The position numbers and the translations under genes were made by a program. Shown one piece after another: positions 195-17,071 of a stretch of 64,000 nucleotides of DNA. Origin of the DNA: Verrucomicrobiota bacterium (GTDB taxonomy: Bacteria; Verrucomicrobiota; Verrucomicrobiia; Opitutales; Cerasicoccaceae); assembly GCA_039818205.1 (NCBI GenBank), contig JBCBUK010000001.1:352001-416000 (forward strand). Reading direction: 5' to 3'. How positions within the stretch are numbered: the stretch's first letter is position 1; every line of letters begins with the position of its first letter. The notes under the pieces are model-generated. The model did no database searches, had not been told where the DNA came from, and saw nothing but the letters and a program-made list of their open reading frames with translations.

Positions 195-1031
195 TTAGCC
201 TACTTTGACCGGTGCCAACTCTGTTTGACGGCGGCGGGCGATATAGAAAACTCCGACTACGAATAAGCCCATGATCAACCAGGTCGATGGTTCTGGGTTC
301 GCAAGATAAGCCACATTGGCGGCGCCGATATCAACGGCGAACAGCAAATCATTATAGTCACGATCGCCACCACCATAGAGATCTTCAAATCCAATCAATA
401 GATACGGGCTGCCGTCTTCAGCGAGACTGACCGTATGGACCAAACCATCTGCATTCGCTGAGTCATCAGTCGACCAGACCATGCTTCCTCCGCGTGCCCC
501 ATTGGCGATCAAGAAAAAGTCCAATTGAGATCCAGCTTCCAACAAGCCGAGGTCAACGAAATCGCCTGGCATGAGCGGAGCCGAGCTAGAACGCCACGCA
601 TTCTCATCACCGTGCTGATAGTAACTATCAACGCTCGATGCATTGGGAAAAATCAACAATGGATCACCGCTATTAACCGAGGCGCCATCTGTATTGTAAC
701 CAAGAGTGTTGTGGTATCCCGCACCTTCACCCACGAAGTAAACCCGCACATTGGCATCGTTACTCAAATATAGTTTAGAGGGATCCAAGCTAATTGACGA
801 AAGATTGGTAATTCCTTGGCGTTCGCCCAGACTTTCGTTGATAAAATCCTGCATCTGAGGAAGCACTTCAGCCTGGAACTGCGCCGAGTTTGCATCGGAG
901 CCCGCCTGCATAACTGGGCTGACGATATCGAGCCCCATTGGGCGCGCGTTGGATTGCACGGACAACTCAGTCTGAGCTGGAACGGGCAGCATTGGTATCG
1001 TGAGAATTGCGAGGTAAGTAAGGTGTTTCAT
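195..1031 (-). CDS. DUF4114-domain, PEP-CTERM-sorted surface protein
   Basis: N-terminal signal peptide; DUF4114-like motif IGFEDLYGGGDRDYNDLLF; C-terminal NPEPSTW + transmembrane helix + RRR (PEP-CTERM signal). Confidence 0.85.
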   Translation of the reverse strand: MKHLTYLAILTIPMLPVPAQTELSVQSNARPMGLDIVSPVMQAGSDANSAQFQAEVLPQMQDFINESLGERQGITNLSSISLDPSKLYLSNDANVRVYFVGEGAGYHNTLGYNTDGASVNSGDPLLIFPNASSVDSYYQHGDENAWRSSSAPLMPGDFVDLGLLEAGSQLDFFLIANGARGGSMVWSTDDSANADGLVHTVSLAEDGSPYLLIGFEDLYGGGDRDYNDLLFAVDIGAANVAYLANPEPSTWLIMGLFVVGVFYIARRRQTELAPVKVG

Positions 1032-1060
1032 TGAGATAATTGTTTACATAAATTTAACGG

Positions 1061-2560
1061 TTATTGGGTCATACTCTTAAGTAGTTTTCGTGAAAACCAT
1101 ACCCAGGGAACACCACAAAGCGCCCCTCGCCAGCCAAGCGACCACACACCACCATCGGACGGCATCGGGAATGCAAAAACCAATACGGCGAGAACCAATC
1201 CGAAACTTCCTAATGCCCAGAGAGTTCCGTCGAGATGAAACGCCAGGAAGTTACCGAGCTTAAGCTCAACCGCTCTCAGAGTGATTGGAATAACAAAAAA
1301 CCAGCCAACCACTGCCGTCGGTATTAAAGTACCCAAAGCGACTCCTAAAATCCCCAAAGAAAACACCAAAGCGAAGCTGATGGCGACATTGAGAACCGCA
1401 TCGATGACCGACAAACGTAGTAACACCTTCTCATGGCCAGTCATCATGAGAATGCGCTTGGTGCAGCTGTTGGTTAGTTGAGAACTATATATCGCCAATA
1501 GTAGTGCCTGGCCGACCCAGAACGCTTCGGCGGGCACCGTTTCAAGACCGGTTAACAATCGAATCAAGCCATCAAGATATACTGCTGAAAGCACATAGGC
1601 CGGTGTTACAACCAACAGCGTTAATCGCGAGCTACGCAACAGCAACTCGCGCAAACCAGCCTCATCACCACTCGCTTTCAATTGCGCCGCTGCGGGCGAT
1701 AGCGCCGATTGCAGTTGCACGCTAAACAGGTTCAGCATTTCGCCCATTTTGAAACCAGCCTGGTAAATCGCGACGGCGGCGACTCCCACCGTTAAGCTGA
1801 TTACCAGCTGATCACTCTTGGCCATGATCAAGTTGCTGAAGGTAATCAGATAGGCCGCAATAGAGAAACTCATTTGGGCTTTTACCGCCCTCCATTCGAA
1901 CAGCTTCGGTGCCAGGGAAAGCTGCTTGATCAAGCGAAAGGCGAAGAAAGCGGCGAAGATATTGGGAATCAAACTCGATACCACGCTGATCGCCATCAAG
2001 GCAGGAAATGGCCACTCTAAGGCAAGAGCTGTGACAATCACGGAAAAGTGGAGTACGGTGTTCCCCACCCCAACCCAGTTCGCTAAATCGATTCGTTGCA
2101 TTCCTCGCAACACTTCGGGAAACAACCCGAGCGGAAACGTCAGGGCCATGCCAATAAAGAAAATGACGTATGCGCTGCTGAATGCATCCCAGTCGTTGGC
2201 CGAGACCGAAACCGCCTCCATAAAGTATGGGCGCAGAAGAATAAAAACTGTCACCAAACCGACCGCCAGGCCAACGAAGGTCCAAAAGATTGTTGATAGC
2301 AGGCGATTCAATCCGGCGTAATCACCCTGAGCCATCTTCTCGGCGACTGCTTTCTGGGCGGTGAAACCAAATCCAAAATCCAGCAAGACGCCGTAACCAA
2401 ACAAAGACCAAAGCAAAGACCAGAAACCAAACGCTTCTTCGCTTAAACCGCTAAACAGTTGGCGAAATAGAATCAAACCAAGGACCAGGCGCAGAACCAC
2501 CTGCACATAGCTGCTACCCGTATTCGCCCAAAAGCGACGCTTCCATTCCGGCTTATCCAC
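1061..2560 (-). CDS. Wzx-like oligosaccharide flippase (polysaccharide biosynthesis/MOP family)
   Basis: About 500 aa with many hydrophobic helices; DFGFG, SDQLVIS and LGILGVALGT motifs typical of flippases; lies among glycosyltransferases. GTG at 2560, preceded by GGAGG, is preferred over TTG at 2566. Confidence 0.85.
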   Translation of the reverse strand: MDKPEWKRRFWANTGSSYVQVVLRLVLGLILFRQLFSGLSEEAFGFWSLLWSLFGYGVLLDFGFGFTAQKAVAEKMAQGDYAGLNRLLSTIFWTFVGLAVGLVTVFILLRPYFMEAVSVSANDWDAFSSAYVIFFIGMALTFPLGLFPEVLRGMQRIDLANWVGVGNTVLHFSVIVTALALEWPFPALMAISVVSSLIPNIFAAFFAFRLIKQLSLAPKLFEWRAVKAQMSFSIAAYLITFSNLIMAKSDQLVISLTVGVAAVAIYQAGFKMGEMLNLFSVQLQSALSPAAAQLKASGDEAGLRELLLRSSRLTLLVVTPAYVLSAVYLDGLIRLLTGLETVPAEAFWVGQALLLAIYSSQLTNSCTKRILMMTGHEKVLLRLSVIDAVLNVAISFALVFSLGILGVALGTLIPTAVVGWFFVIPITLRAVELKLGNFLAFHLDGTLWALGSFGLVLAVLVFAFPMPSDGGVWSLGWRGALCGVPWVWFSRKLLKSMTQ

Positions 2561-3683
2561 CGGCAACCTCCCGATAGACTGCCTCGCACTGTTCGGCGAC
2601 CAGGTCCCATCGATACTTAGCTGCCCATTCTCGTCCCATCGCGACCCGCTCAGCTCGCTCGCTCTGGCTTAGGCTGCCCATCTTGCCAAGGGCTTCAGTC
2701 ATCGATTCTACCGACATTGGATCGAACTCAATCGTCGCTGGCCCGTTAACTTCAGCGAGGCTTGTCGCGTGTGACGATACAGCCATCGTCCCACAGGCCT
2801 GGGCTTCAATGACCGGGAAACCGAAACCCTCCATCAATGACGGAAACACGAGCGCCTCGGCTGCCGCATACCAAAGTGCGAGTTCATCATCCTCAATGAA
2901 ACCCGCCATCCGAATCGAACGCTGATGCTTCGACGCTTCCCAAGCGGCATCAATTGCTTCCTTACCATGCCAAGGCGCACCACCGAGAACCAAGTCCCAG
3001 TCCAAGCCACTGGATTCGCGAAACCGACCAAAGGCTTCGATCAATCGCACATGGTTTTTTGCCGGATGTTCAAAACGGGCGATGTAAATTAGATACGGCT
3101 TCGTCAGCTGATGTTTGATCCGAAACGTGGATAACGAGTCTTCATTCGCCGGCCGAAAACGCTCATGGTCGATTCCGTTCGGAATAACTCGCAGGCGATC
3201 AGCGGAAACTCCGAGGTAGTTTTTAATATCCTCACCTGCCGTCGCGCTCACCGCAATCACGCGATCCATGCGACGAGCGATCCAAGGAACGACCTTCCTG
3301 CCGAAAAAGCCCCGAAGCGCATCATACTTCTCCGCCAAGATGAATGGCGCACAGTCGTGTATCGTGGCAACCTGCGGAGCGGAGCTTCGAACGACCATCC
3401 GCCGATAGCTTGGGATGTGAACAACATCGAAGTCTCCTTTTTTGATAATTCCCGGAAGGACCGCCTGGTGCCAAAGCAAATTCACCGCCCCGCTGCTGGC
3501 CTTCGGGTGAATGCTTACCCAGCGATCATCTGCGATCCAGGGAAACAGTGAGCGATCGGAATCCAGGCCAACAATAAAGACATCGATGCCGCGGGTGCAG
3601 AGGTGTTGGCTCAGCGCGATGACATAGCGCCCAACACCGGAACGCCCCCCTTGGACCATGCCGGCTGAGAGTAACAGCTTAAT
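2553..3683 (-). CDS. Glycosyltransferase family 4 (GT-B)
   Basis: TIHD, VIAVS, IPNGID, KNHVRL and EGFGFPVIEAQACG motifs. The start is uncertain; an ATT at 3683 behind AGGAGG is proposed (see findings). Confidence 0.9.
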   Translation of the reverse strand: MKLLLSAGMVQGGRSGVGRYVIALSQHLCTRGIDVFIVGLDSDRSLFPWIADDRWVSIHPKASSGAVNLLWHQAVLPGIIKKGDFDVVHIPSYRRMVVRSSAPQVATIHDCAPFILAEKYDALRGFFGRKVVPWIARRMDRVIAVSATAGEDIKNYLGVSADRLRVIPNGIDHERFRPANEDSLSTFRIKHQLTKPYLIYIARFEHPAKNHVRLIEAFGRFRESSGLDWDLVLGGAPWHGKEAIDAAWEASKHQRSIRMAGFIEDDELALWYAAAEALVFPSLMEGFGFPVIEAQACGTMAVSSHATSLAEVNGPATIEFDPMSVESMTEALGKMGSLSQSERAERVAMGREWAAKYRWDLVAEQCEAVYREVAGG

Positions 3684-5160
3684 GAGCTGCCCCTCCTGCT
3701 GCGGGCTCCAACAAGAACTCTTGCAACCGCAAAAGCTTGATGACGTACCGCAGTTGCTCACTTGGATCGACAATCAACAAACTACCATTGCGTTCGAGCA
3801 TGCGTCGGCGCGCCATCAGCAATGCCGTCACGCCATTACTATCAATGAAGTTCACGGCCGAGCAATCGATCGCTAGAGTCCGTGCTCCAGGATCAGCCTC
3901 AATCAATGCATTTAGCTCAGCGGACAACTGCTTCACGTTGGAACGGTCGATCGTATCGATCAATTCGTAGCGTATCGTTATCGGTTCTTCGCCCTCGTCA
4001 CTGTCAGTGGCTGGGGTGATCTCAGATAATGATGCTTGAAATACGTTCTCATCGCTGAAGAAACGAAACAGAGAATCGAGCCGAACCGCCTTCAGCGCAC
4101 TCATCACGCTTTCCGAAGGGGACAACAATCCGAATGCTTGATTCCGTTCTCGGGCTTGACGGGCAAGCTTGGCCAGTGCGCCCATGCCCGCACTATCCAT
4201 AAAATCAACCTCACTGAGATCGAGTAGCACTGGCTGCTTCCAGTCCTCTGGTTGCGGTAGGTCGTCAACGTTCACCCGCTCAGCGGCTCCTTTCCAAGCC
4301 AACCGCTGAATTGCAACCGACTTGGACGGCAGTGGCTCAGCACTTGGTAGGCTAGCGGGTCGATTCGTTGAACGCCGGCGTTTGGACAGCCATTGTTTCA
4401 TGGTAACCCAACTGAGAAAAAAGAAATCACGTGCGTATCGGCTAAAGAGTCGTTTGGGGTTCGTGCCCATGCGCCAGAGCCATTCCATCCCAGTCTTTTG
4501 CATCCAGATCGGCGCTCGTATCTGCTTTCCTGATATGAAGTCCAGCGACGCACCAATACCGATTCCGAGCGACGCTCCCGTCTCCTTAAAATACTGGTAG
4601 ATCCATTCCTCCTGCTTTGGACAGCCCAAAGCGACGAGCAATACATCCGCATTGGCCGCACGCACCCGCCGCACGACCGCTTCGTTGTCCCACTCGTGCA
4701 CCTGACCCATTGGCGGAGATTCGAACCCAACGATATCCAGGCCAGGCATCCGCTGGCGCAAGAGCTCCACGACCTCACCCAAAGCCGTGTCGTCACTTCC
4801 AAAGAAGTAGACCTTGCTGCCGATCTGAGCACTGAGCTCCAAAAGCTTAGGCGTTAAATCCGAACCCGCTACCCGCTCCCGCAAAGGATGACCCAGAATC
4901 TTGGAGATCCAAATCAACGGCATACCGTCGCAAACAACTCGTCTCGCATAAAATAGGATACGACGCAGTTCTTCGTTCTCAAATGCCTGGGCGGCAAAGT
5001 CGACGTTCGCCGTTACGAAATAAGCTGGCTTGCCGGTTTCCAATACGTGTCGGCATTCCAACAAGGTTTCCTCCATCGTCAAATCATGGAAGGGCAAACC
5101 CAACAACACGGCGATCGGCGGTTCGTGGTGAGAGTCGCTGCTATCTGGTTGAGAGCTCAT
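3679..5160 (-). CDS. WecB/TagA/CpsF (GT26) glycosyltransferase fused to two C-terminal STAS domains
   Basis: GT26 motifs VTANVDF, CDGMP, ERVAGSDL, VALGCPKQE, GIGASLDF, RAPIWMQKTGMEWLWR. These are followed by STAS motifs LDLSEVDFMDSAGMGAL and IDCSAVNFIDSNGVTAL. Likely start MSSQPD at 5160. Confidence 0.9.
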   Translation of the reverse strand: MSSQPDSSDSHHEPPIAVLLGLPFHDLTMEETLLECRHVLETGKPAYFVTANVDFAAQAFENEELRRILFYARRVVCDGMPLIWISKILGHPLRERVAGSDLTPKLLELSAQIGSKVYFFGSDDTALGEVVELLRQRMPGLDIVGFESPPMGQVHEWDNEAVVRRVRAANADVLLVALGCPKQEEWIYQYFKETGASLGIGIGASLDFISGKQIRAPIWMQKTGMEWLWRMGTNPKRLFSRYARDFFFLSWVTMKQWLSKRRRSTNRPASLPSAEPLPSKSVAIQRLAWKGAAERVNVDDLPQPEDWKQPVLLDLSEVDFMDSAGMGALAKLARQARERNQAFGLLSPSESVMSALKAVRLDSLFRFFSDENVFQASLSEITPATDSDEGEEPITIRYELIDTIDRSNVKQLSAELNALIEADPGARTLAIDCSAVNFIDSNGVTALLMARRRMLERNGSLLIVDPSEQLRYVIKLLRLQEFLLEPAAGGAAH

Positions 5161-6370
5161 TAGAGGTTCGTAGTCGTTGGAGTTTTTGGATGAGTCGCTC
5201 GCCAAGCGCTGCCCAGGTATAGGTATCCAGCACTTTAGAACGTCCCGCACTAGCGAGTTTTCGCCGCAAACTTGCGTTGTCGATTAGCTGCACACAGGCA
5301 TCGGCAAAATCAGCGGCGCTATCGGCTAGGAGCAACTCGTGGTCATGGTCCAAATCTAAACCTTGTGCACCCAAGGTCGTCGAAACGACCGGATTAGTCA
5401 TCGACAAGCCTTCGACAATTTTTAGGCGCGTCCCGCCGCCAATGCGCAGTGGAACGACCTGCATCCAAGCCTTTTGATAAAAAGGGCGCACATCGGGCAC
5501 CTCCCCTTCGAAAACAACCCCTGGCTGCTTCGCATACGCCTTGACCTCTTCGGTCGGATTCTTGCCAACCAAAATGAGTTGGTAGTCGGGTCGCTCACTC
5601 AAAATGCGATGATGGATTTCGTCAAAATACCAACGCATCGCGTCCGTATTAGGCGTGTAATCAAGCGCACCGCAAAATAAAGCGCTGGGATAGACGGTTG
5701 GCTCCGGTGGCCACTCAGTCGCATCGAAAAAATCGGTATTGGCACCGTTGGGCAGAACATAAACTCTTTCGGGCAATCCCAAGCGTTCATCGAGGAAATC
5801 CTTGTCTTCGAGACCGCAAACCACCTCGAGCGAGATCTGTTGGATTACCTCGCGCTCAGCCCGAGCAATTTTCATGAGATTCTCACGACGCATGAATCTG
5901 CCCCAGGCCGTGTCGTTCAGCGTAGCCAACTCCTCCCGTTGAAACAACCAGTCGACGCGGCTCCGATCCATCACCAGACAATTATGGTCCGCGAAAAACC
6001 GTTTCACGTAGGGCCACAAAACGATATCGACCCAGAAGATACAGTCATAAGACTGACCGGAAACAAACTCACCAAGTGCCCGCTCAACATCCGGTGAATA
6101 CCAATGCCGGATGGTGGTCGGCTGTGGGTTCCAGACACGATCTGTCCAGAAAGACGGCCAAGGCGGGTGTTGGAAGTCAGAAAACTCGACCCGCTCACAC
6201 ATTGCCTGGAATCGATCAAGTTGTTCGTGATCCTCGGGTTCAGTAGACAGGCAAAAGAGATCGACCGAAAATGCCTCGGCCAGTTGCTCGGTCAAGTGAA
6301 ACACGCGCTGGAAAGTGCCCCGGCGAATGGGAAACGGAACGTATGGTAATATGACCAGCAACCGCTTCAT
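5141..6370 (-). CDS. Glycosyltransferase family 4 (subtype common in PEP-CTERM/EPS loci)
   Basis: PFPIRRG N-terminus, FCGALDYTPN, GEVPDVRPF, PLRIGGGTRLKIVE, VVSTTLGAQG. Confidence 0.88.
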   Translation of the reverse strand: MKRLLVILPYVPFPIRRGTFQRVFHLTEQLAEAFSVDLFCLSTEPEDHEQLDRFQAMCERVEFSDFQHPPWPSFWTDRVWNPQPTTIRHWYSPDVERALGEFVSGQSYDCIFWVDIVLWPYVKRFFADHNCLVMDRSRVDWLFQREELATLNDTAWGRFMRRENLMKIARAEREVIQQISLEVVCGLEDKDFLDERLGLPERVYVLPNGANTDFFDATEWPPEPTVYPSALFCGALDYTPNTDAMRWYFDEIHHRILSERPDYQLILVGKNPTEEVKAYAKQPGVVFEGEVPDVRPFYQKAWMQVVPLRIGGGTRLKIVEGLSMTNPVVSTTLGAQGLDLDHDHELLLADSAADFADACVQLIDNASLRRKLASAGRSKVLDTYTWAALGERLIQKLQRLRTSNELSTR

Positions 6371-6374
6371 TGTC

Positions 6375-7466
6375 TTAGCTATAATAGCCCCACCATACTT
6401 CGTAAATATTATAGATGGCGTTCCACTCCGTATTTTCTATCGGCAGGTTCTTGCCAACCTGAACAAAATCCGGCGTTTCAGCATTCAATTGAACCAGCGC
6501 TCTCATCAATGCCCCTCGCGGATAATCGGTATAGGGCTGAAGAGCGGCCCCACGCTTGAGCCGATCACGCAGCGCCAATGCAAGGCAACGCAACGGCGAT
6601 TCATCGGGGAACAAACGCTCATTTGCCTTCGCGTATTGGTCGGCACTTCCGAAACTCCTTCCCAGACGCTCACCTTCAACTGCCAAATAGACATCCAACC
6701 ACAAAGAACGCAGCCGATCGTTTTGCCCTTTGAGGTCAAGGGACATCGGTGGCTCGACCGGGCGCTGCTTGAAGTCAACGCCCGTTGCATGTAGTTGACG
6801 AATTTCATCAGTAAGCAGCGGGTGCTCAAGCGCAGCAACCAACTGTTTACGGGTCTCACAGAACGCATTGTGTTGGCCTGATATACATAGAACTGCATCG
6901 CCCAACGCCAAAGCGAGTTTCATGTGTTGACGATAAATGAAATCCTCAGCGCCCGAAACTTCCAACTTGCACCGAGCGAAAAACAAGCCACTACCGCGGT
7001 TCCACAAAAGTCGCGTCGCTTCAACTTTGTGTATGAGTTTGGGATCCATTTTCGAATGCCATTTTGCCAAGTAATCATCGGGACCCACGACAACCAGATG
7101 TCCCATGATCAAATCGTGAAACATCATGGAGGATTCTGCGTTTTTGAGATTTCCAGGAGACACGCAGGTTACCTCGACATCGATTGACAAAGCCTCGCTT
7201 TCGGTCCGCTCAAACGCCTTTACTCGCTTTCGCAAAGCGTCGTCTTCCGGGCTCTCCGTAAAGAGAAAATAATCGAGGTCATTAAACAATTTAGGCGTAT
7301 CGCCATCAACGAATACGCCCCCTTCACCGCGGCCATAGCCGCCACCCAAGACTAATGCCTCTATTGATGTAGATTCGTCAGTATCAAAGTAGGCTTTTGC
7401 ACGCGCAATGTGTTCTTCCAGTTGCTTCAACAGGGAAGAAAATGTCCCGTTGAAATAGCGCGCCAT
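6375..7466 (-). CDS. Pol-beta-type nucleotidyltransferase-like protein
   Basis: LVLGGGYGRGEG followed by NDLDY (hG[GS]...DxD), a later IDVE strand and a helical C-terminal region. The substrate is unknown. Confidence 0.65.
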   Translation of the reverse strand: MARYFNGTFSSLLKQLEEHIARAKAYFDTDESTSIEALVLGGGYGRGEGGVFVDGDTPKLFNDLDYFLFTESPEDDALRKRVKAFERTESEALSIDVEVTCVSPGNLKNAESSMMFHDLIMGHLVVVGPDDYLAKWHSKMDPKLIHKVEATRLLWNRGSGLFFARCKLEVSGAEDFIYRQHMKLALALGDAVLCISGQHNAFCETRKQLVAALEHPLLTDEIRQLHATGVDFKQRPVEPPMSLDLKGQNDRLRSLWLDVYLAVEGERLGRSFGSADQYAKANERLFPDESPLRCLALALRDRLKRGAALQPYTDYPRGALMRALVQLNAETPDFVQVGKNLPIENTEWNAIYNIYEVWWGYYS

Positions 7467-7469
7467 ATG

Positions 7470-7781
7470 CTAATTCTCTAAATTAAATACTGTGTTCAGG
7501 CGAAGGAGCTCAACGACACTGAGCACCTCAGGGCTAAGGTTGGTCAGCGATAGCGGTCGAACACCCCCACGAAGAGAGTTGTTCAAATGCAGAAGCGCGC
7601 CCAGCCCCGAGCTATCAATAAACGCAAGTCCAGAGCAGTCGACGACGACCTTCCCAGCTTGCGGAAGATCGAGCATTCCAAGCTCCTGTTTGAACTCTGC
7701 TGCATTCGCCGCCTCCAAATGGGAAGTCTTTAATTGGATAACGAATGCCTCACTTTGTTCTTGGGTCTCAAATAATGGCAT
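7470..7781 (-). CDS. Stand-alone STAS protein (anti-sigma-factor antagonist, SpoIIAA/RsbV/SypA-like)
   Basis: 103 aa; VVVDCSGLAFIDSSGLGALL with the phosphoacceptor Ser; C-terminal LLRLNTVF. Confidence 0.9.
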   Translation of the reverse strand: MPLFETQEQSEAFVIQLKTSHLEAANAAEFKQELGMLDLPQAGKVVVDCSGLAFIDSSGLGALLHLNNSLRGGVRPLSLTNLSPEVLSVVELLRLNTVFNLEN

Positions 7782-7880: not shown

Positions 7881-8609
7881 ATGGCGGATGATGAAATTCA
7901 CCCCACACTGAATCAATTTTGGTCAACCCAGGAAGGCCAAAGTGAAATTCTCAAGTGGCGAAAAAACATGCGTCGCAAAATTAGTTTTTGGCGACTAACG
8001 ATCGCGTTCAGCCAAACGAGCAAACGCGTTCTCGATATCATTGGTTCCGCAGCGGCCCTCATCGCATTCTCCCCGATTTTCGCGATCACGGCGATCCTGA
8101 TAAAATTGGAAGACCGGGGGCCAATATTTTTCTCTCAGACTCGGGTTGGAGAAGCGGGCCGAGCATTCCAATGCTTCAAGTTTCGCTCAATGGTCGTTAA
8201 TGCCGATCAGATCAAAGAAAAGCTAAGTGAACAAAATCAGCACGACGACGGGGTCACCTTTAAAATGAAAGACGACCCGCGGATAACGAAAGTCGGCAAG
8301 TATATCCGCAAACTGTCCATCGACGAATTCCCTCAGTTCTATAATGTATTGCGTGGAGACATGTCACTCGTCGGACCGCGCCCACCGGTTCCGAAAGAAG
8401 TCGCCGAATACAAGGCCTTTCACCTGCGTCGCCTCATGGTTAAGCCCGGCATTACCTGTCTGTGGCAAATTGGCGGCCGCGCGGATATCGACTTCGAAGG
8501 GCAAGTGCGTCTCGATCTCGAATACATTGGATCCCAGAATCTCAAACAAGACCTACACATACTACTGAAGACCGTACCCGCCGTTATCCTCGGTAAGGGT
8601 GCCTACTAG
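7881..8609 (+). CDS. Priming undecaprenyl-phosphate sugar-phosphate transferase (Bac_transf family)
   Basis: KRVLDI, FFSQTRVG, FKFRSM, DDPRITKVGKYIRKLSIDEFPQFYNVLRGDMSLVGPRP, KPGITCLWQ, RLDLEY, GKGAY. Confidence 0.95.
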   Translation: MADDEIHPTLNQFWSTQEGQSEILKWRKNMRRKISFWRLTIAFSQTSKRVLDIIGSAAALIAFSPIFAITAILIKLEDRGPIFFSQTRVGEAGRAFQCFKFRSMVVNADQIKEKLSEQNQHDDGVTFKMKDDPRITKVGKYIRKLSIDEFPQFYNVLRGDMSLVGPRPPVPKEVAEYKAFHLRRLMVKPGITCLWQIGGRADIDFEGQVRLDLEYIGSQNLKQDLHILLKTVPAVILGKGAY

Positions 8610-8614
8610 CTACA

Positions 8615-9760
8615 ATGAGTCACCTCGTTACTGAAGCAGCTACCTTATCACTGGTCTGCCCGGACTGGTTTTACCTGGAACACGAGCTCAAATTGCCGGA
8701 CCCCTTTGTGCTCTGGCCCGTAGGCGACCAACCCCTGCTCTACCATTGGTTCGATTATGCCTTGGACCAGGGCTACAAATGTGTCCGAATATTTGTTACT
8801 GATCGGCCGGATCGCGTGCGCGAAGCCGTTAACCAAGCCACGCTTTGGCCGATAATGCTAGAGGTGGTCACGGTTTCTCAATCTCGCGAAGACGACGGTG
8901 TGGTAATAGGCGGCCTGCCGGATGGCGAAGCCTTGGCCCTTCCGGAAAACGAATGGGACATACTCAGGCACTGGCAAAAGATGGATTCTGATTGGCTTCG
9001 GATGACCGAAGATGAGTCTTTGAAAGTCAATCTGTCTGTCGGTCGCCTCTGTCGAATTCACCCAACGGCCAAACTGGTTGCGCCCTACCTTATCGGTGAT
9101 CACGTCGCAATCGGCCCAGGAGCAACTATTGGACCCAACGCTGTTGTTGGCAGCGGCTCGATGGTCGCGGAGGATACCGTCGTAAAAAACGCGCGACTGA
9201 TGCCGCATAGCTTCCTCGGAGCCCACCTGACACTTGAGAAAGCAATCCTCTATGGACGGGTACTCTTCAATTGCAAACACCGCGCACGAATCGAACGGAT
9301 CGAATCCTTTATCGCGGACTCGGTGATTCCTCGCAATGATGCCCCACCCTGGTCCGAACGAATTGTTGCACTCGGCTACTGGATCCGTTTTCAGTTCATC
9401 CTAAAAGTCGGCCTCGCAAAGAAAAGTCCCCGCATCACGCTCAACGGCAAAAGCTATCCTGGTCCGGTCAATCCACCCTTATGGGCCGAACGTCTTCCCC
9501 GAATCTGGGAGGTCGTCTGCGGGCGCATGCGCCTATTTGGGCCCTTGCCACGATCCGACGAACAGCTCGAGCAGATACCGATCGATTGGCGCCCCATTCT
9601 CCGCGAAGCCATCCCCGGCGCCATCGCCTACAGCGATTGCCTTGGCTGCCACGACCCCAATGACCCAACGGAAGCCCTTCACGCGGTTTATCAAATCACG
9701 CATCCGGAGCAAACCCAGCCCCAATGCGAATACTTTCTCAAACAGCTAACCCACCACTAA
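8615..9760 (+). CDS. Chimeric protein: degenerate NTP-transferase N-terminus + left-handed beta-helix + degenerate sugar-transferase C-terminus
   Basis: PFVLWPVGDQPLLYHW resembles the PKPLxPV motif; hexapeptide repeats IHPTAKLVAPYLIGDHVAIGPGATIGPNAVVG; ERLPRIWEVVCGRMRLFGPLP resembles [21 protein letters not shown]. Confidence 0.65.
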   Translation: MSHLVTEAATLSLVCPDWFYLEHELKLPDPFVLWPVGDQPLLYHWFDYALDQGYKCVRIFVTDRPDRVREAVNQATLWPIMLEVVTVSQSREDDGVVIGGLPDGEALALPENEWDILRHWQKMDSDWLRMTEDESLKVNLSVGRLCRIHPTAKLVAPYLIGDHVAIGPGATIGPNAVVGSGSMVAEDTVVKNARLMPHSFLGAHLTLEKAILYGRVLFNCKHRARIERIESFIADSVIPRNDAPPWSERIVALGYWIRFQFILKVGLAKKSPRITLNGKSYPGPVNPPLWAERLPRIWEVVCGRMRLFGPLPRSDEQLEQIPIDWRPILREAIPGAIAYSDCLGCHDPNDPTEALHAVYQITHPEQTQPQCEYFLKQLTHH

Positions 9761-9769
9761 GGAACATCT

Positions 9770-10303
9770 ATGAAAGGTATGGTATTCACCGAACTCTTGG
9801 ATATGGTCGAAGATAAGTTCGGCATCGATATGGTCGATAACATCATTGATGACGCCGATCTGCCCGTTTCCAACGGTTCTTACACGGCGGTAGGCACCTA
9901 TCCGCACGAAGAAATTGTCTCACTCGTCATGCAACTCAGCAAGCATAGCGGGATCTCTCCCGACGGTCTGCTAAAAGTATTCGGAGAGCACCTTTTCGCC
10001 CGTTTTCACAAGGGCTACCCCCACTTCTTCGAAAGCGCGACGGACGCCTTTTCGTTCCTACAAAACATCGACCAGTATATTCACGTTGAGGTCCGCAAGC
10101 TCTACCCCGATGCCGAGCTACCAAAGTTTGACTGTGAACTAAACGAGAATCAGCTAAAGATGACCTATTCTTCGTCTCGTCATATGGAAGACTTCGCCGA
10201 AGGGCTGATACAAGGCTGCCTTAACCACTTTGAAGAAGAAGCCGATATTGCTCGGGAACCGGTCGATGACAATACAACGGTCTTTCTCGTGACCCATCGC
10301 TAG
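9770..10303 (+). CDS. hnoX: H-NOX heme NO-binding protein
   Basis: MKGMVF N-terminus; proximal His in YIHVEVRKLYPDAELP; YSSSR (YxSxR heme motif); GLIQG. Confidence 0.92.
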   Translation: MKGMVFTELLDMVEDKFGIDMVDNIIDDADLPVSNGSYTAVGTYPHEEIVSLVMQLSKHSGISPDGLLKVFGEHLFARFHKGYPHFFESATDAFSFLQNIDQYIHVEVRKLYPDAELPKFDCELNENQLKMTYSSSRHMEDFAEGLIQGCLNHFEEEADIAREPVDDNTTVFLVTHR

Positions 10304-10319
10304 ACGGTGGGCAGGTTGA

Positions 10320-12740
10320 ATGAGTGACGAAAGCGACAAGTGGAAACGGCGCTACGAGCGCGAACGGAATGCCCGTAAGCAGGCCGAACAACTGCTCGAA
10401 GAAAAGTCGCTCATGCTCTACGAGAAAAACGTCGAGCTCGAGAAACTAAGCGCACAGCTCGCCGAAACCGTAGAACGGCGAACGGAGGAACTTCGTTTTT
10501 CGACCAGCAAACTGCGCGAGCAGGAGGAACGAATGTCGTCACTCGCCGAGACCTTCCCCGGCGTAATCTTCCAATGGGTCGAACGGAGCAACGGTGAATC
10601 TGGCTTCAACTACATGAGCCCACGCGTCGAGAAGATCTTCGGGTTCAGCGCTACCAACGCGATCAAAGATTGGCACCGGATGCAGATTCACTACGACGAT
10701 GTGCCCGCGTGGCAGGAGTCGATAAAAGAAGCTCTCCAATCGATGTCGGAGTGGCGGTGCACCGGGCGTCTGGTCACACCCAGTGGAGAAACCAGGTGGT
10801 GGCAAGGCTACGGCAAACCGTTAAGAGTGTCGGAAACCGAGGTCGCCTTCAACGGAGTCTTTCTCGACATCAGCCAGCAGAAACAAATAGAAGCGCAGAT
10901 TCGCCGGCTTTCATTGGTCGCAAGCCGAACCATCAATGGCGTCGTCATTACCGACGAGAACGGTCGTGTCGTGTGGATCAACGAAGCTTTCGAAAGAATT
11001 ACCGGATATACTCTCCAAGAACTCCGCGGACGTAAACCCGGCGAGCTCCTCCAGGGACCATTAACTTGCCGGAAAACAATCAAATACATCGGAGAGAGGC
11101 TTAAGGAAAAACAGCCGCTTACAGCCGAACTCCTAAACTACCACAAAAACGGTGAGACCTATTGGCTGCGCCTCGACGTAAACCCGCTCTTCGACGAAAA
11201 AAATCAGCTCACGAATTTTGTGGGCATCGAGACAGACATTACCAAGCAAAAGGAAACGGAGACTGCTCTGAAACTGGCTTCGGAACATGCGCAGGAAGCC
11301 GCCAAGGAAGCCAATCGAGCCAACCAGGCAAAAAGCCGTTTTCTCGCCAGCATGAGCCACGAGATCAGGACACCGCTGAACGGGGTCCTCGGCTATACAC
11401 AGGTCCTCAACATGAGGGATGACCTACCCGAAGATGCTGCCGGCATGATCGAGTCCATCGGACGCAGCGGAGAACACCTGCTTCATCTGATTAATGATAT
11501 TCTCGACATTTCAAAGATCGAGGCGGGCAAATACGAACTGACCGGTGGCGATGTCCTCTTACAAGAGATTTTACGCGACCTGCTGGACATGTTTAGCCCG
11601 AATGCTGAGCTAAAATCGATTCGCTACGATTGCGTTTGTTGGGACTTTGAACGCGACACGCCACTAGCGGACGATAACTTCTACTTCCAAGCCGACGCCC
11701 GTGCCTTACGGCAGATCCTCCTAAACCTGGTCGGCAATGCGATCAAGTTTACTAAGCGCGGGCACGTCCTAGTCAAAGCAGGTCCGGATTCCGCATCATC
11801 ACTCAAGTTTATCGTCGAAGATACCGGAGCTGGAATCCCTGAAGAAGACCACCAACGAATCTTTGAAACCTTTGAGCAGTCCAACCAAACGAACAGCAAA
11901 GTTGCTGGAACCGGTTTGGGTCTGCCAATCTGTCGAAAGCTGGTTGGCCTCATGGAAGGCAGCATGCGTCTGGAGTCAGAAGTCGGCAAGGGATCTCGAT
12001 TCTCGTTCGATATTCCTTATATCAAGCCGAAAGAAATTCACTCGACCTATGTTCCTGTCCAAAAACTCCAGAAGGTTCACTACGTTGGACCGAAGAAAGA
12101 CATTCTTGTTGTCGATGACGATGAGCACAGCCGCCGGGTTACCAAGGAGCTACTGATCGCAGCCGGTTTCCGGGTTACCTCGGTCTCCTCCGGCGAAGAC
12201 GCACTCCACCATCTTTCACGCGAAATCCCTGACCTTGTCGCCACGGACTTGCTAATGCCAGAAATCGATGGCTTCGAACTGCGCCACCGGATCCGCGTTA
12301 CCCCAGCAATCCAACACCTACCCGTGATCGCGGTATCCGCCAGCGTCATGCAATCAGCCGAAAATGCGAGCCGCCTGAAGCCGTTTGCAGGCTTTATAGC
12401 CAAGCCCGTCAAAGCGGAAGATCTGTATCGACAGGTCGGCGAGGTTCTTGGTCTTGAATGGCAAACACCGAAATCGGAAGAAGAACAGCCTGATGATACT
12501 GAGATCTCACCTTCACCGCCCCTGGAAAAATCAATTCCGGATCGACCAGTACTCCAATCGCTCCTTGTCCTCGCCGAACAGGGTGATATGTTTGGACTAC
12601 AAAGCCAGATTGCTGAGATCCGCGAGGACTCACAGGAGCATTCCGAGTTCTATACCCAACTGCACGACCTCGCCGCCAGCTTTCAAAGCCAGGCGATCGA
12701 GGACCTTCTCAATGACTGTCTAGCCAATCACAAAGCATGA
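10320..12740 (+). CDS. H-NOX-associated hybrid histidine kinase (coiled coil-PAS-PAS-HisKA-HATPase-REC)
   Basis: N-terminal RERNARKQAEQLLEEKS coil; two PAS/PAC domains; FLASMSHEIRTPLNG, NLVGNAIKFT, DTGAGI, GTGLGL; REC with LVVDD and TDLLMP. No transmembrane helix. Confidence 0.93.
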   Translation: MSDESDKWKRRYERERNARKQAEQLLEEKSLMLYEKNVELEKLSAQLAETVERRTEELRFSTSKLREQEERMSSLAETFPGVIFQWVERSNGESGFNYMSPRVEKIFGFSATNAIKDWHRMQIHYDDVPAWQESIKEALQSMSEWRCTGRLVTPSGETRWWQGYGKPLRVSETEVAFNGVFLDISQQKQIEAQIRRLSLVASRTINGVVITDENGRVVWINEAFERITGYTLQELRGRKPGELLQGPLTCRKTIKYIGERLKEKQPLTAELLNYHKNGETYWLRLDVNPLFDEKNQLTNFVGIETDITKQKETETALKLASEHAQEAAKEANRANQAKSRFLASMSHEIRTPLNGVLGYTQVLNMRDDLPEDAAGMIESIGRSGEHLLHLINDILDISKIEAGKYELTGGDVLLQEILRDLLDMFSPNAELKSIRYDCVCWDFERDTPLADDNFYFQADARALRQILLNLVGNAIKFTKRGHVLVKAGPDSASSLKFIVEDTGAGIPEEDHQRIFETFEQSNQTNSKVAGTGLGLPICRKLVGLMEGSMRLESEVGKGSRFSFDIPYIKPKEIHSTYVPVQKLQKVHYVGPKKDILVVDDDEHSRRVTKELLIAAGFRVTSVSSGEDALHHLSREIPDLVATDLLMPEIDGFELRHRIRVTPAIQHLPVIAVSASVMQSAENASRLKPFAGFIAKPVKAEDLYRQVGEVLGLEWQTPKSEEEQPDDTEISPSPPLEKSIPDRPVLQSLLVLAEQGDMFGLQSQIAEIREDSQEHSEFYTQLHDLAASFQSQAIEDLLNDCLANHKA

Positions 12741-13843
12741 ATCAGTCTACCAAAGCCACTATTCTTGTTGTTGATGATAACGCAACCAACCTAGCGGTTG
12801 TTTGCACCCACCTAACCAAACAAGGGTTTCGTATGCTAACGGCTGAGAGCGGACCCAGTGCCCTCAGGCGACTCGATCATATTTCTCCAGACATGTTGCT
12901 CCTGGATGTCATGATGCCTGAGATGGATGGGTTTGAACTCGCACAAAGGATTCGCGAACGCGAGGACTACAACAACCAGCCAATCATCTTCATGACCGCG
13001 CTCGACGACATGAACAGCAAACTCCAAGGCTTTGCCAGTGGAGGCGTCGATTACATCACGAAGCCCATTCAGCATGAGGAGATGATCGCACGCGTTCGCA
13101 CTCACCTCGAAGTCCATCAGCTCCGGGTCGCATTGCGCAGAGAAAACGAAAACAAGGATCAACTCATCGCTGAGCTCGAAGCATACGATATGACGGTCGC
13201 GCACGACCTAAAGAATCCCATCGGTGCCATTGCCAGTGCCGCCGAAACCTTCGAGATGATGGATGACCTGACCAACGATGAGGCCAAAGAAATCATCGAG
13301 TTGATCCGAATGGGAGCCGATCAAGCACAAAACATTATCAGAGGACTTCTATCGTTTGCTCAGCTTCGCAGCGGCGAGGCTCAACGTTCGGAGGTCGACA
13401 TGGATCAGCTCGCTCGGGAATGCATTGAAACCTTGCACAGCCTTTCTGCCGAAAGCGGTGCCTCAATCGAGATCGACGGTGAGTTACCCGCGGCCTATGG
13501 TTACGCTCCGTGGTTAAGTGAAGTGTGGTCGAACCTGATCAGCAACGCGATCAAGTATGGTGGGCACCCGCCCATCATCACGATCAAGGGAGAAACATTG
13601 GAAAAGAACGTACGCTATTGCGTTGCCGACAATGGCAGTGGACTCCCTGAAGATCGCACCACCCTCTTTAAGCCGTTTTCTCGCGGAACGAGCGCCCACA
13701 CCGAGGGAACCGGGCTGGGCCTTTCCATCGTCGAACGCATCATCCGGCGCCACGAAGGTTCGATCCTCGCGGAAGACCGACCTGGCGGTGGCGCAGCAAT
13801 GACGTTCTACCTACCTAAGACCGACCGCAACCATGCTGAATAA
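12737..13843 (+). CDS. REC-HisKA-HATPase hybrid kinase/response regulator
   Basis: ILVVDDN, LLDVMMPEMDG, DYITKP; AHDLKNP; NLISNAIKY, DNGSG, GTGLGL. ATGA overlap with the upstream gene. Confidence 0.92.
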   Translation: MNQSTKATILVVDDNATNLAVVCTHLTKQGFRMLTAESGPSALRRLDHISPDMLLLDVMMPEMDGFELAQRIREREDYNNQPIIFMTALDDMNSKLQGFASGGVDYITKPIQHEEMIARVRTHLEVHQLRVALRRENENKDQLIAELEAYDMTVAHDLKNPIGAIASAAETFEMMDDLTNDEAKEIIELIRMGADQAQNIIRGLLSFAQLRSGEAQRSEVDMDQLARECIETLHSLSAESGASIEIDGELPAAYGYAPWLSEVWSNLISNAIKYGGHPPIITIKGETLEKNVRYCVADNGSGLPEDRTTLFKPFSRGTSAHTEGTGLGLSIVERIIRRHEGSILAEDRPGGGAAMTFYLPKTDRNHAE

Positions 13844-15551
13844 GGAGCAATACATCATTGATCAAAGTACGGTAACGGTTCAACAGGTGCGCGTCCGGGC
13901 CTCATTGGAAGCCGTTCATCCTGTTCGAGAAATGTTTGTTGCCTATTTGGAGTCAGTTGATGTGTCTGCCTCCGAGATCGGCGGTTGGAAGCTGGTATTT
14001 ACAGAGCTACTCAACAACGCCATCATCCATGGTTCTGGTGAAAATGATTCGGAATCAATTGAGATCGAATGGTCGTTGAGCAACCGGGCGATTCAGCTTT
14101 GCATCGAAGATCCGGGGACTGGGCCAACAAAAAGTCAGGAGATTGAAGCAACGCTGCCCGAGAATCCTGAGCAGGACCACGGACGAGGCCGATTCATTAT
14201 CCAGTCTTTCGCCGACCGGGTTGCGGAATGGAGAACAACCAACGGGTTTCGAATCGAAGTCGAGAAAGGGTGTCGGGAATCCGGAGGAATCGAACCACCA
14301 TCCGAAGAGATGGAGGCCATTCTCAAAGAACTATCCGCCAGCTACGAAGGCCTTGCCGCATTCTATCAGCTGAGTGAGTCGCTGGTCAAATCAGACACTT
14401 TGAGCATCCTGCTGGACCAAAGTCTGCGCAATGTACGGGAAAGCATTGTGCTCGACTACCTTTGCATCTTCCCGATGTCTGATTTGCCGCCCTTCATCCA
14501 AACTCAGTTTAGACAGGTCGCTCAGATCATTGATGATGTCCCAACTCCAATTCACGGTCTTCTGCAGCGCAAGTGCGAGATCGTTTGGGAAAATCCGGAT
14601 CAGCAAGCCGCTCTCGATGCTGGAGTAAATCCGATCGCCGAGTTTAGCTCAGGATGCTTGCTGCCAATAACCTCGGAAGAAAACTTCTTCGGTTTACTCG
14701 CCGCAGGACGCCGCCGCGGCTCAAACCAAATCGTGTCCTCACAAGTCAACAACCTGCGTACGTTCGCTGATATTTTTGGAATTGCGATTGCCAATTTCAT
14801 TTCCACAACGATCCGGCACGAAGCAGAAAAAGACTTACGCGAATTCGAAATCGCCGCAGAAATCCAACAACACCTGCTGCCAATTCGGCAACCAATCGAA
14901 CCCATGAAACATGAGGTTCGAGTGTTTCAACGAGTCGCCCAGAATGTAGCGGGCGACTATGCTGAATACTGTCAGGATAGGCTAGGCAACCACTACCTAA
15001 CCATTATCGACGTCATGGGCAAAGGCGTGTCGGCGGCAATGCTCGGAATTCTGTACCGAGCCGCCCTCAATCTACTCCTAAGCACACCCAAGCCACTGCC
15101 CGTCATGCTTGAGCAAATCGGGCGCGTCCTCAATTTCATGTTGGGTGATCTAACGATGTTCATCACCGTGACGATTCTGCGTTGGAATGACGAAGTCGAC
15201 ATGATCGAACATGTCAACGCAGGCCATTGCCCGACGGTTAAAATATCTGAAGATGGAACCATCCAACAATTTGAGCCCTCTGGTCCGCCAATTGGATTGT
15301 TGGCCGAATACCGCTATGAGAGTGACACCATTGAGATGGAACCTGGGGATCGCGTCATTTTGGTTTCGGATGGATGCTATGAATGGAAGACCAACGATTC
15401 GATATTCGGGTGGGAGCGATTAATCGACCTTATTAGAGAAGGTAACCACCCTCACGGCGCTCAGCTCTGGCACGCGCTTTGCCAAATAATGGACCTAGGC
15501 CCCAATGGCGAGGAACCCGCCGACGACATTACCCTCGTGTTTCTAAAGTAA
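13833..15551 (+). CDS. RsbW/SpoIIAB-like Ser kinase + GAF-like + SpoIIE/PP2C phosphatase fusion
   Basis: Kinase motifs ELLNNAIIHG, EDPGTG, HGRGRFII; GAF-like LLPI...FFGLL...FADIFGIAIAN; PP2C motifs IQQHLLP, AGDY, DVMGKG, NAGH, SDG, DDIT. Confidence 0.88.
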   Translation: MLNKEQYIIDQSTVTVQQVRVRASLEAVHPVREMFVAYLESVDVSASEIGGWKLVFTELLNNAIIHGSGENDSESIEIEWSLSNRAIQLCIEDPGTGPTKSQEIEATLPENPEQDHGRGRFIIQSFADRVAEWRTTNGFRIEVEKGCRESGGIEPPSEEMEAILKELSASYEGLAAFYQLSESLVKSDTLSILLDQSLRNVRESIVLDYLCIFPMSDLPPFIQTQFRQVAQIIDDVPTPIHGLLQRKCEIVWENPDQQAALDAGVNPIAEFSSGCLLPITSEENFFGLLAAGRRRGSNQIVSSQVNNLRTFADIFGIAIANFISTTIRHEAEKDLREFEIAAEIQQHLLPIRQPIEPMKHEVRVFQRVAQNVAGDYAEYCQDRLGNHYLTIIDVMGKGVSAAMLGILYRAALNLLLSTPKPLPVMLEQIGRVLNFMLGDLTMFITVTILRWNDEVDMIEHVNAGHCPTVKISEDGTIQQFEPSGPPIGLLAEYRYESDTIEMEPGDRVILVSDGCYEWKTNDSIFGWERLIDLIREGNHPHGAQLWHALCQIMDLGPNGEEPADDITLVFLK

Positions 15552-15554
15552 GTC

Positions 15555-15923
15555 ATGAAAGAGATAATTGTAGTCGACGACGACATCACGATGATACGCC
15601 TGCTTCAGTTGCATTTGCGCCGGGCGAAAATCAAAGGGCACTACTTTCAATCTGGCCAACAGTGTTTACAAGCCGCCGCCGGGATAAACGCAGACCTTGC
15701 CTTGCTCGACTACGACCTGCCCGACACCAAGGGCACCTTGCTAATGAGGTCCCTACGCGAGATTCCAGGCTACGAGGAGCTGCCGGTGCTCATTTTCACC
15801 GCACGAACCAGTAGTGAATTACTTCCCAAGATCAAAGAGTCCGGGGCGAACACCGTCCTTTCGAAACCCTTTAGCCCAACCCACTTGATCCGCCAGATCG
15901 AGAGCTTCCTTACCCAAGAGTGA
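15555..15923 (+). CDS. Single-domain response regulator (REC)
   Basis: IIVVDDD, LLDYDLPD, FTA, KPF; 122 aa with no output domain. Confidence 0.9.
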   Translation: MKEIIVVDDDITMIRLLQLHLRRAKIKGHYFQSGQQCLQAAAGINADLALLDYDLPDTKGTLLMRSLREIPGYEELPVLIFTARTSSELLPKIKESGANTVLSKPFSPTHLIRQIESFLTQE

Positions 15924-17059
15924 AATCACGCGTTGACTGTTTTATCTTTGCTGACGCCCTAGGCTGGAAACTCGCCCAGGAGCGAAACTTCTTGGACGAC
16001 TTGTTACCCGTTCGTTCTCCGGCGCAAACGCTGTTTGGGTACTCGTCCACGTGTGACCCGACGATTTTGACCGGCGCCCTCCCTTGTGACCACGGACATT
16101 TTTCCTTCTTTGTTAAGGCGGATAACGACTCACCCTTTAAGGGTCTGGGTAGGTTCGGATTCCTACCGCAAAAGATCGCCGGGCACCACCGCATCCGCAA
16201 TCGTGTCAGCCGATACTACGCCAAAGCGTTAGGATACACAGGCTATTTCCAACTCTACAGTGTCCCGTTTGGCCGCTTACCTTACCTCGACTATACCGAG
16301 AAAAAGGACATTTATGAACCGGGAGGAATCATCGGAGGACAACCAACCATCTTTGAGTTTTGGGAGGAATCCAAGAAGCCTTGGCTACGCTCTGATTGGA
16401 GGGCTGGAGACGCGGCGAATTTGGCTCAAGCCAAGCAGGCACTAGAGAAAGGCGACATCGAGCTACTCTATCTCTTTACGGCAGGTCTCGATGCCACCAT
16501 GCATCGTTACGGTCCGAGTGGACCCGAGGTCGATGCAGCCTTCGACCAGTTTGCCAGCGAGCTTAGGCAGTTGCACGCTATTGCTTCCAAACACTACCGC
16601 GAAGTTCGACTTCATTTGTTCAGCGATCACGGAATGGCGAAAATCACTACGGCTTCCAACATGCTAAAGCGCTGGCCCGAGATCGACCTGCGATACGGAG
16701 AGGACTATGTCGCCGTTTGGGATTCAACCATGGTCCGCTTTTGGTTCAACAATGACCGCGCCCGAGACATTACAGCCGGCTGGTTGCGAGCCCAACCCGA
16801 TGGAAAAATCGTTACCGACAAAGAACTCGCGGCGGGCGGTTGTCTCTTTCCTGAGAGGCAATATGGTGACCTCTTCTATCTGTTACCAGCTGGCAGCCTA
16901 TTTGTCCCCTCATACATGAACCTAGGTTTCGTCAAAGGAATGCATGGCTATGACCCAGCCCATGAAGACAGTACCGCCTGTTGGCTAGCGACTCACGAGA
17001 CCCTACCTGTAAAAAGTCTCACCGATATCTACCCCGTCATGCGCGCCGCCGCGCAATAA
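15920..17059 (+). CDS. Alkaline-phosphatase-superfamily enzyme (nucleotide pyrophosphatase/phosphodiesterase type)
   Basis: Metal-ligand motifs FADALG, GYSST, DATMH, FSDHG, GMHGY. No signal peptide is evident. Confidence 0.8.
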   Translation: MKSRVDCFIFADALGWKLAQERNFLDDLLPVRSPAQTLFGYSSTCDPTILTGALPCDHGHFSFFVKADNDSPFKGLGRFGFLPQKIAGHHRIRNRVSRYYAKALGYTGYFQLYSVPFGRLPYLDYTEKKDIYEPGGIIGGQPTIFEFWEESKKPWLRSDWRAGDAANLAQAKQALEKGDIELLYLFTAGLDATMHRYGPSGPEVDAAFDQFASELRQLHAIASKHYREVRLHLFSDHGMAKITTASNMLKRWPEIDLRYGEDYVAVWDSTMVRFWFNNDRARDITAGWLRAQPDGKIVTDKELAAGGCLFPERQYGDLFYLLPAGSLFVPSYMNLGFVKGMHGYDPAHEDSTACWLATHETLPVKSLTDIYPVMRAAAQ

Positions 17060-17071
17060 CAGATTCAAACC

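Follow-up and report, generated by a model that had tools for sequence, protein, structure and literature searches.

We describe a glycosyltransferase fused to two STAS domains in a 64,000-nucleotide stretch of DNA (hereafter the window) from a Verrucomicrobiota bacterium (assembly GCA_039818205.1, contig JBCBUK010000001.1, positions 352,001 to 416,000). The fusion joins a WecB/TagA-type transferase of family GT26 to tandem STAS domains with conserved serines, S323 and S441. With a probability of roughly 0.6, these serines are phosphorylated and dephosphorylated by the RsbW/SpoIIE protein encoded at 13833-15551; the enzyme would then be under direct control, with no sigma factor involved. This reading is supported by the conservation of the serines, the tight co-occurrence of the fusion with the kinase/phosphatase, the lack of sigma factors in the clusters, and the precedent of the Anabaena protein All4160. 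The fusion is real, conserved and well supported as a regulatory fusion; its phosphorylation is predicted. The features on which the argument turns are as follows.

3679..5160, minus strand: GT26 (WecB/TagA/CpsF)-STAS-STAS fusion, 493 amino acids (open reading frame translation, Pfam, NCBIfam, AlphaFold2 model, Foldseek)
4369..5115, minus strand: GT26 domain and C-terminal tail helices, residues ~16-264, with D78/E226/W227/R230/R237 (Pfam, model, TagA alignment)
4018..4314, minus strand: STAS1, residues ~283-381; S323 codon at 4192-4194
3712..3981, minus strand: STAS2, residues ~394-483; S441 codon at 3838-3840
13833..15551, plus strand: bifunctional RsbW-like serine kinase / GAF-like / SpoIIE (PP2C) phosphatase

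The fusion protein and its family

The original prediction, made from the sequence alone, was of an intact GT26 domain followed by tandem STAS domains that both keep the serine of the DS motif, and Pfam, NCBIfam, the structure model and the motifs all agree with it. Glyco_tran_WecG (PF03808) covers residues 74-242 (E 5.6e-57), STAS is matched twice, and TIGR00696 and TIGR00377 both score above cut-off. An AlphaFold2 model based on 108 homologs reached a predicted local distance difference test score (pLDDT) of 88.4 and a predicted template modelling score (pTM) of 0.78. Foldseek related its N-terminal part to TagA (7mpk, 5wb4) and its C-terminal parts to SpoIIAA/RsbV. The motifs of the fusion are FMDSAG (from residue 320, serine S323) and FIDSNG (from residue 438, serine S441). 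The STAS fold and the homolog-conserved serine in D-S-x-G fit the anti-anti-sigma type of STAS domain.

PF03808 and TIGR00696 above cut-off, the TagA fold, the catalytic Asp and the tail Glu/Trp/Arg likewise place the enzyme in GT26. In our alignment, D65, E210, W211, R214 and R221 of T. italicus TagA correspond to D78, E226, W227, R230 and R237 of the fusion, and R224 maps one residue off, to S240, which adjoins the invariant R241. According to passages of the TagA study, D65, R214, R221 and R224 are important and E210 and W211 less so, and the C-terminal tail is membrane-targeting, mobile and required for catalysis (PMC8784642). The STAS pair starts directly after this tail. Judged by these residues, the GT26 domain looks catalytically intact. 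Since the fusion does not reach the equivalog cut-offs of TarA, WecG and EpsA (for example, 118 bits against the 350-bit cut-off of the TagA/TarA equivalog NF041710), its predicted donor and acceptor are left unassigned.

Hundreds of full-length homologs rule out an assembly artefact or a one-off chance fusion, and the same Pfam set recurs in nearly all of the best 120. The best named homologs come from Cerasicoccus, which points to an Opitutia-type Verrucomicrobiota as the host. The domain-architecture search that had been proposed for GT26+STAS+STAS revealed a family in three phyla: among the best 80 matches it is spread over Opitutia, Verrucomicrobiales and Pedosphaerales, and it also occurs in Chloroflexota (Chloroflexus, Oscillochloris, Anaerolineae) and Desulfobacterota (Desulfobaculum bizertense, Desulfovibrio inopinatus). 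No fusion turned up among 111 genomes from the phylum of G446, among 101 from that of G447, where three matches were GT26-only, or in a plasmid collection, where 0 of 63 records covered 80% of the query. Single-STAS forms are common: of 150 representatives chosen at 50% identity, two STAS hits were obtained for 102, one for 36 and none for 12. A FastTree phylogeny of 267 GT26 domains served only for choosing distant clades, and we claim no single origin. Three loci labelled Zhongshania, Bifidobacteriaceae and Blastochloridaceae (L053, L074, L078) were left out of the counts for other phyla; the loci carry the Verrucomicrobiota-type fusion, and these labels are probably wrong. One further protein of 811 amino acids, found in one genome (L312:9118-11550, G113), links GT26 to a SpoIIE phosphatase, with a Ser-less STAS-like remnant and one more domain in between; it is a second fusion that ties GT26 to SpoIIE/STAS signalling chemistry.

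Serine conservation and linkage to a kinase/phosphatase

The original prediction had named poor conservation of the serines as possible counter-evidence, and we found them largely conserved. Among the closest 120 homologs, a serine stands at S323 in 118 and at S441 in 112, the other 8 rows being gapped at S441. The 102 two-STAS representatives keep it in 91 (STAS1) and 95 (STAS2). In a diverse 83-row alignment of 34% identity, the counts were 76/83 and 79/83, comparable to the catalytic D78 (78/83), and both serines were within the four best-conserved STAS columns. The Chloroflexota-side set had two STAS hits in 121 of 123 proteins, with serine in 121/121 and 120/121; there the Asp preceding the second serine is mostly replaced and the serine retained. 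Nearly all serine codons are AGY, and codon usage was uninformative. In degenerate motifs (STAS1 of L120-L150, and L239-L247), an acidic residue often follows the serine site at a distance of 1-2 positions and might serve as a built-in mimic of the phosphate.

Conservation of this kind could also have a structural origin. The STAS domains might stabilise the tail of GT26 or tether it to the membrane or to partners as a structural or ligand-binding extension, the serine being kept as a helix cap. The serine does lie at a helix start in the model, and the pTM of the three-domain chain suggests a fixed packing. Nine metagenome loci encode GT26 with a folded single STAS in which, read by eye, the serine is replaced. 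STAS domains of SulP transporters nevertheless fold with another residue at this site: among 30 SulP loci of the same phylum, 26 residues aligned at the serine column, of which 23 were Ala and none Ser. The distribution of the kinase, described below (39/43 against 0/19 genomes), is also unexpected for a purely structural residue, and we consider this explanation improbable.

The candidate kinase/phosphatase consists of an RsbW-like kinase domain, a GAF-like middle that falls below the Pfam cut-off, and a SpoIIE phosphatase. Its kinase residues and PPM metal residues are invariant in all 28 aligned RsbW-GAF-SpoIIE copies, the window copy included; linked to the fusion and with intact catalytic motifs, the two activities would make up a candidate partner-switch-like module. 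A co-occurrence count with RsbW/PP2C genes had been proposed as a check, and we conducted it on 401 evenly drawn genomes of the same phylum, all at least 90% complete. A diverse fusion profile matched 62 of these genomes, 43 with GT26 and at least one Ser-bearing STAS, and 19 without (12 inspected, 7 assessed from the range of the match). The generic RsbW family PF13581 was rejected as a marker: it is too common (149/401 genomes) and misses divergent REC-SpoIIE-RsbW kinases, in which a receiver (REC) domain precedes the phosphatase. We therefore used a profile built from four cluster kinase domains (A2), whose seeds come from 4 of the 39 positive genomes given next.

This cluster-type kinase domain was present in 46 of the 401 genomes: in 39 of the 43 with a Ser-bearing fusion (18 families; 35 of the 39 without the seed genomes), and in only 7 of the remaining 358, among which are the 19 nearest GT26 relatives without a Ser-bearing STAS, all of them negative. 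Several of these 19 carry a short Ser-less STAS-like remnant, recognised by eye, and Pfam matched STAS in 0 of 2 tested. Within families f3 (5/26) and f27 (8/10), the kinase and the fusion are carried by the same genomes. Because related genomes are not independent data points, and scoring was limited to ten candidates per genome, a Fisher value for this association overstates it.

Two kinase architectures flank the fusion, RsbW-GAF-SpoIIE and REC-SpoIIE-RsbW, and the latter directly adjoins it in L122 and L218. Outside Verrucomicrobiota, one Chloroflexota neighbourhood was informative (contig L231, among 80 loci), and no Desulfobacterota neighbourhood was readable. On L231, a metagenome contig whose protein is 62% identical to that of Chloroflexus, SpoIIE and RsbW are separate genes, and a single run encodes a priming transferase, GT26-STAS, a left-handed beta-helix (LbH) protein, STAS, GAF-SpoIIE, RsbW and REC.

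The structure prediction that had been suggested for the complex lent weak support. The kinase dimer with ATP and the STAS-STAS pair scored 0.49, against 0.00 for the best control, with runs agreeing in at least 93% of contacts and a partner pLDDT of at least 80; the predicted pair resembles the solved SpoIIAB-SpoIIAA and RsbW-RsbV complexes. The mark applied was reached by 116 of 157 solved and 2 of 215 mismatched pairs, but with a score of 0.60 or less only 18 of the 157 solved pairs reached it, as did both mismatches.

The textbook output of RsbW/STAS/PP2C sets, as passages of the literature have it, is a sigma factor (PMC8256260). The fused and free STAS domains might accordingly titrate RsbW from such a factor, control being transcriptional and the enzyme a localisation or feedback device. 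The genome has 27 matches to sigma-70 region 2, yet no sigma factor lies in the window, and none of the 36 kinase loci of at least 10 kb gave a match to that region, a count of linked sigma factors that leaves room for an unlinked one. The polysaccharide-linked precedents SypA and All4160 also have no reported sigma output in the passages of PMC13555669 and PMC4517449, and we regard this explanation as very unlikely.

The gene cluster and the free STAS protein

The fusion and the kinase/phosphatase belong to a polysaccharide cluster that includes, among others, a Wzx-like flippase, four GT4s, one GT2 and a priming Bac_transf transferase. Its genes apart from those of the first list are the following.

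195-1031: DUF4114 protein, at the end of the cluster in several Opitutia loci; PEP-CTERM match weak
195..3683, minus strand: GT4, Wzx-like flippase and the DUF4114 protein, downstream of the fusion
5141..7466, minus strand: GT4 and a pol-beta-like nucleotidyltransferase-fold protein without a Pfam family, upstream of the fusion
7470..7781, minus strand: free SypA/RsbV-like STAS protein with a D-S-S-G motif
7881..8609, plus strand: priming polyprenyl glycosylphosphotransferase (Bac_transf), head-to-head with the free STAS
8615..9760, plus strand: LbH protein with a degenerate Bac_transf-like C-terminus
9770..13843, plus strand: H-NOX, hybrid PAS histidine kinase, REC-histidine kinase
15555..15923, plus strand: stand-alone receiver domain, conserved beside the kinase/phosphatase
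15920..22021, plus strand: phosphodiesterase, CBS-DHH pyrophosphatase, GT4, GT2 and GT4 of the same cluster

The most serious alternative concerns the free STAS at 7470-7781, which the original prediction overlooked and which is an equally good or better candidate substrate than the fused STAS. The kinase/phosphatase might act on this SypA-like protein, which would in turn control in trans either the priming transferase or the complex for assembly, with the fused STAS as a docking or scaffold element whose serines are non-regulatory. The free STAS keeps its serine in 58 of 58 cluster copies. Of 30 kinase-centred 3-kb loci, 20 have it no more than 1.5 kb from the kinase, and in five of the seven kinase-only genomes it adjoins the kinase (G246, G297, G326, G343, G373). 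One of these, G343, has a cluster with the kinase, the free STAS and a STAS-less GT26. A STAS beside a priming transferase is, moreover, the split form of All4160 as that protein is described in passages of PMC13555669. What this alternative leaves unexplained is why the fused serine outlasts its flanking Asp in two lineages, and why Ser-less fused remnants occur where the kinase was not found. In L218, too, the kinase abuts the fusion, and no free STAS was found within 20 kb of sequence. We consider it unlikely on balance that the free STAS is the sole regulatory target.

Several observations weigh against a direct switch of the fused serines, beginning with those on the free STAS just given. 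The whole cluster is gained or lost as a unit, so the co-occurrence reflects linkage and cannot single out a substrate; the kinase is also accompanied by the free STAS, the priming transferase and the LbH protein, which usually lie nearer to it than the fusion does. Four genomes with a Ser-bearing fusion have no cluster-type kinase (G237, G348, G271 and G008, all at least 90% complete). The nine metagenome loci imply that a STAS domain can persist on GT26 without the serine; no kinase or phosphatase was seen there within 2-21 kb of sequence. In one lineage, the Asp before the first serine is lost and the serine mostly retained. MlaB, the intended control for a structural serine, was found in none of 41 genomes of the centre genome's class. 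Against the cluster free STAS, the fused domains scored medians of 36 and 48 bits, and generic RsbV-like STAS of the genome scored 22-74 bits; a special kinship was not supported. SypA orthologs also occur, according to passages of PMC4517449, in Vibrio species without SypE.

The window genome contains 11 STAS matches, four strong RsbW-like domains and five strong SpoIIE domains. A paralogous trio of REC, RsbW-GAF-SpoIIE and STAS lies at G000:C20:4052-6515, where a scan of 20 kb showed no glycosyltransferase, and the trio alone also occurs in G246 and G297. Given these several domains and the C20 paralog, other kinases could act on the fusion.

If the fused serines are nonetheless switched directly, as we favour, the priming transferase would make the lipid-PP-sugar and GT26 would extend it by the next sugar, towards a surface polysaccharide exported by Wzx. 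The STAS pair is attached to the GT26 C-terminal tail, which in TagA serves membrane targeting and active-site closure, and phosphorylation would shift this tail or its membrane access. The unphosphorylated form would, if the switch is real, quite probably be the active one, by analogy with All4160 and SypA. The free STAS would probably be a second substrate of the same kinase/phosphatase, either serving as a buffer or controlling the priming transferase. In this lineage, the H-NOX/histidine-kinase relay and the lone receiver may set the balance of kinase and phosphatase; the H-NOX and histidine kinases are the likely input to the switch, and since H-NOX is present in few loci only, such an input would be lineage-specific. 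The direction, input and catalysed step are drawn by analogy. More tentatively still, a module of three STAS domains in Verrucomicrobiota, Chloroflexota and probably Desulfobacterota could place the first two steps of lipid-linked glycan synthesis under one kinase/phosphatase, the fused STAS gating GT26 in cis via its membrane-binding tail and the free STAS gating the priming transferase in trans; this is possible, though we think it doubtful.

Other genes of the cluster deserve brief mention. The region separating the divergent free-STAS and priming-transferase genes showed no promoter-like site. The C-terminus of the LbH protein (8615-9760) gave no significant BLAST match to the priming transferase (7881-8609), but profile searches supported a Bac_transf-like C-terminus weakly to clearly in relatives, and the relative on L231 has the order NTP_transferase-LbH-Bac_transf; the protein is conserved next to the true priming transferase and is possibly a pseudo-enzyme partner. 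The protein at 6375-7466 is conserved in the clusters without a Pfam match, its Atlas structure neighbours are pol-beta-like nucleotidyltransferases, and in one cluster it is fused to a phosphodiesterase like that at 15920-17059; it may decorate the polysaccharide. The downstream GT4 has no ATG or GTG at the start position of its relatives, and Luteolibacter-type relatives have ATG or GTG at the corresponding start; translation may begin at ATT (3681-3683), which overlaps the fusion stop, 8 nucleotides after GGAGG.

Known systems and significance

The closest known system is that of Anabaena PCC 7120, where passages of PMC13555669 report that Ser74 of All4160, a STAS-Bac_transf protein, is phosphorylated by Alr3423 in vitro and that HenR opposes this genetically. 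Like the fusion, All4160 joins a conserved-Ser STAS to a polysaccharide enzyme and is accompanied by an RsbW-type kinase and a SpoIIE phosphatase without a sigma output. It differs in having a single N-terminal STAS on a Bac_transf priming transferase and separate kinase and phosphatase genes. The window system has GT26, one or two C-terminal STAS domains, usually one bifunctional kinase/phosphatase, and in addition a free STAS; its Bac_transf is a separate gene that lacks the N-terminal STAS of All4160. Phosphorylation is demonstrated for All4160 and, for GT26-STAS, inferred. The authors of PMC13555669 describe STAS-Bac_transf fusions as rare outside cyanobacteria and the strategy as lineage-specific, and passages of its preprint contain no mention of WecB, Verrucomicrobia or Chloroflexi.

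The syp locus of Vibrio fischeri resembles the cluster in its free STAS with F-x-D-S-S-G, its dual kinase/phosphatase, its priming transferase and its flippase, as far as passages of PMC4517449 and PMC10120452 describe it; no GT26-STAS fusion for syp turned up in these passages. In the portions of the syp literature consulted, SypA is active when unphosphorylated and its target is unknown (PMC10120452, PMC4517449, PMC8256260), gene R is the priming transferase (PMC5801674), and an H-NOX/hybrid kinase input is named (PMC12369376). Unlike the fusion, SypA is a STAS-only protein. SypE is a response regulator, whereas the protein at 13833-15551 has a GAF-like middle and its receiver is a separate gene. 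The receiver of SypE is central, between kinase and phosphatase.

Compared with TagA/TarA/WecG, the fusion keeps the GT26 fold and the catalytic residues D65/E210/W211/R214/R221 and has ~230 extra residues, the two STAS domains, after the C-terminal tail. With RsbV/RsbW/RsbU and SpoIIAA/AB/E of Bacillus, it shares the STAS fold, the phospho-Ser motif, and the kinase and PPM phosphatase families; in contrast to those partner switches, the cluster has no sigma factor and the STAS is fused to an enzyme.

The original prediction held that a partner switch directly gates a glycan enzyme rather than a sigma factor. The conserved serines, the co-occurrence and the absence of sigma factors are in line with it, but a STAS phospho-switch on a polysaccharide enzyme is already published as All4160 (PMC13555669), so the principle itself is not new. 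New are the different enzyme family (GT26), the tandem C-terminal STAS and the three other phyla; our literature search, which covered sources other than subscription journals and supplements, found no paper that describes a GT26-STAS fusion.

All4160 is the one demonstrated STAS phospho-switch on a polysaccharide enzyme and has been called cyanobacteria-specific; GT26 provides a second, independent fusion. It lies on a structurally solved enzyme family and occurs in the cultured Cerasicoccus, Luteolibacter, Prosthecobacter, Chloroflexus and Desulfovibrio inopinatus, which makes the mechanism easily testable in vitro, and it offers a concrete hypothesis for post-transcriptional polysaccharide control by free STAS proteins such as SypA. 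Were the three-STAS module true, direct phospho-gating of polysaccharide enzymes would have arisen at least twice and would not be specific to cyanobacteria, and an early transferase, for example the priming enzyme SypR, would be the target that has long been sought for SypA.

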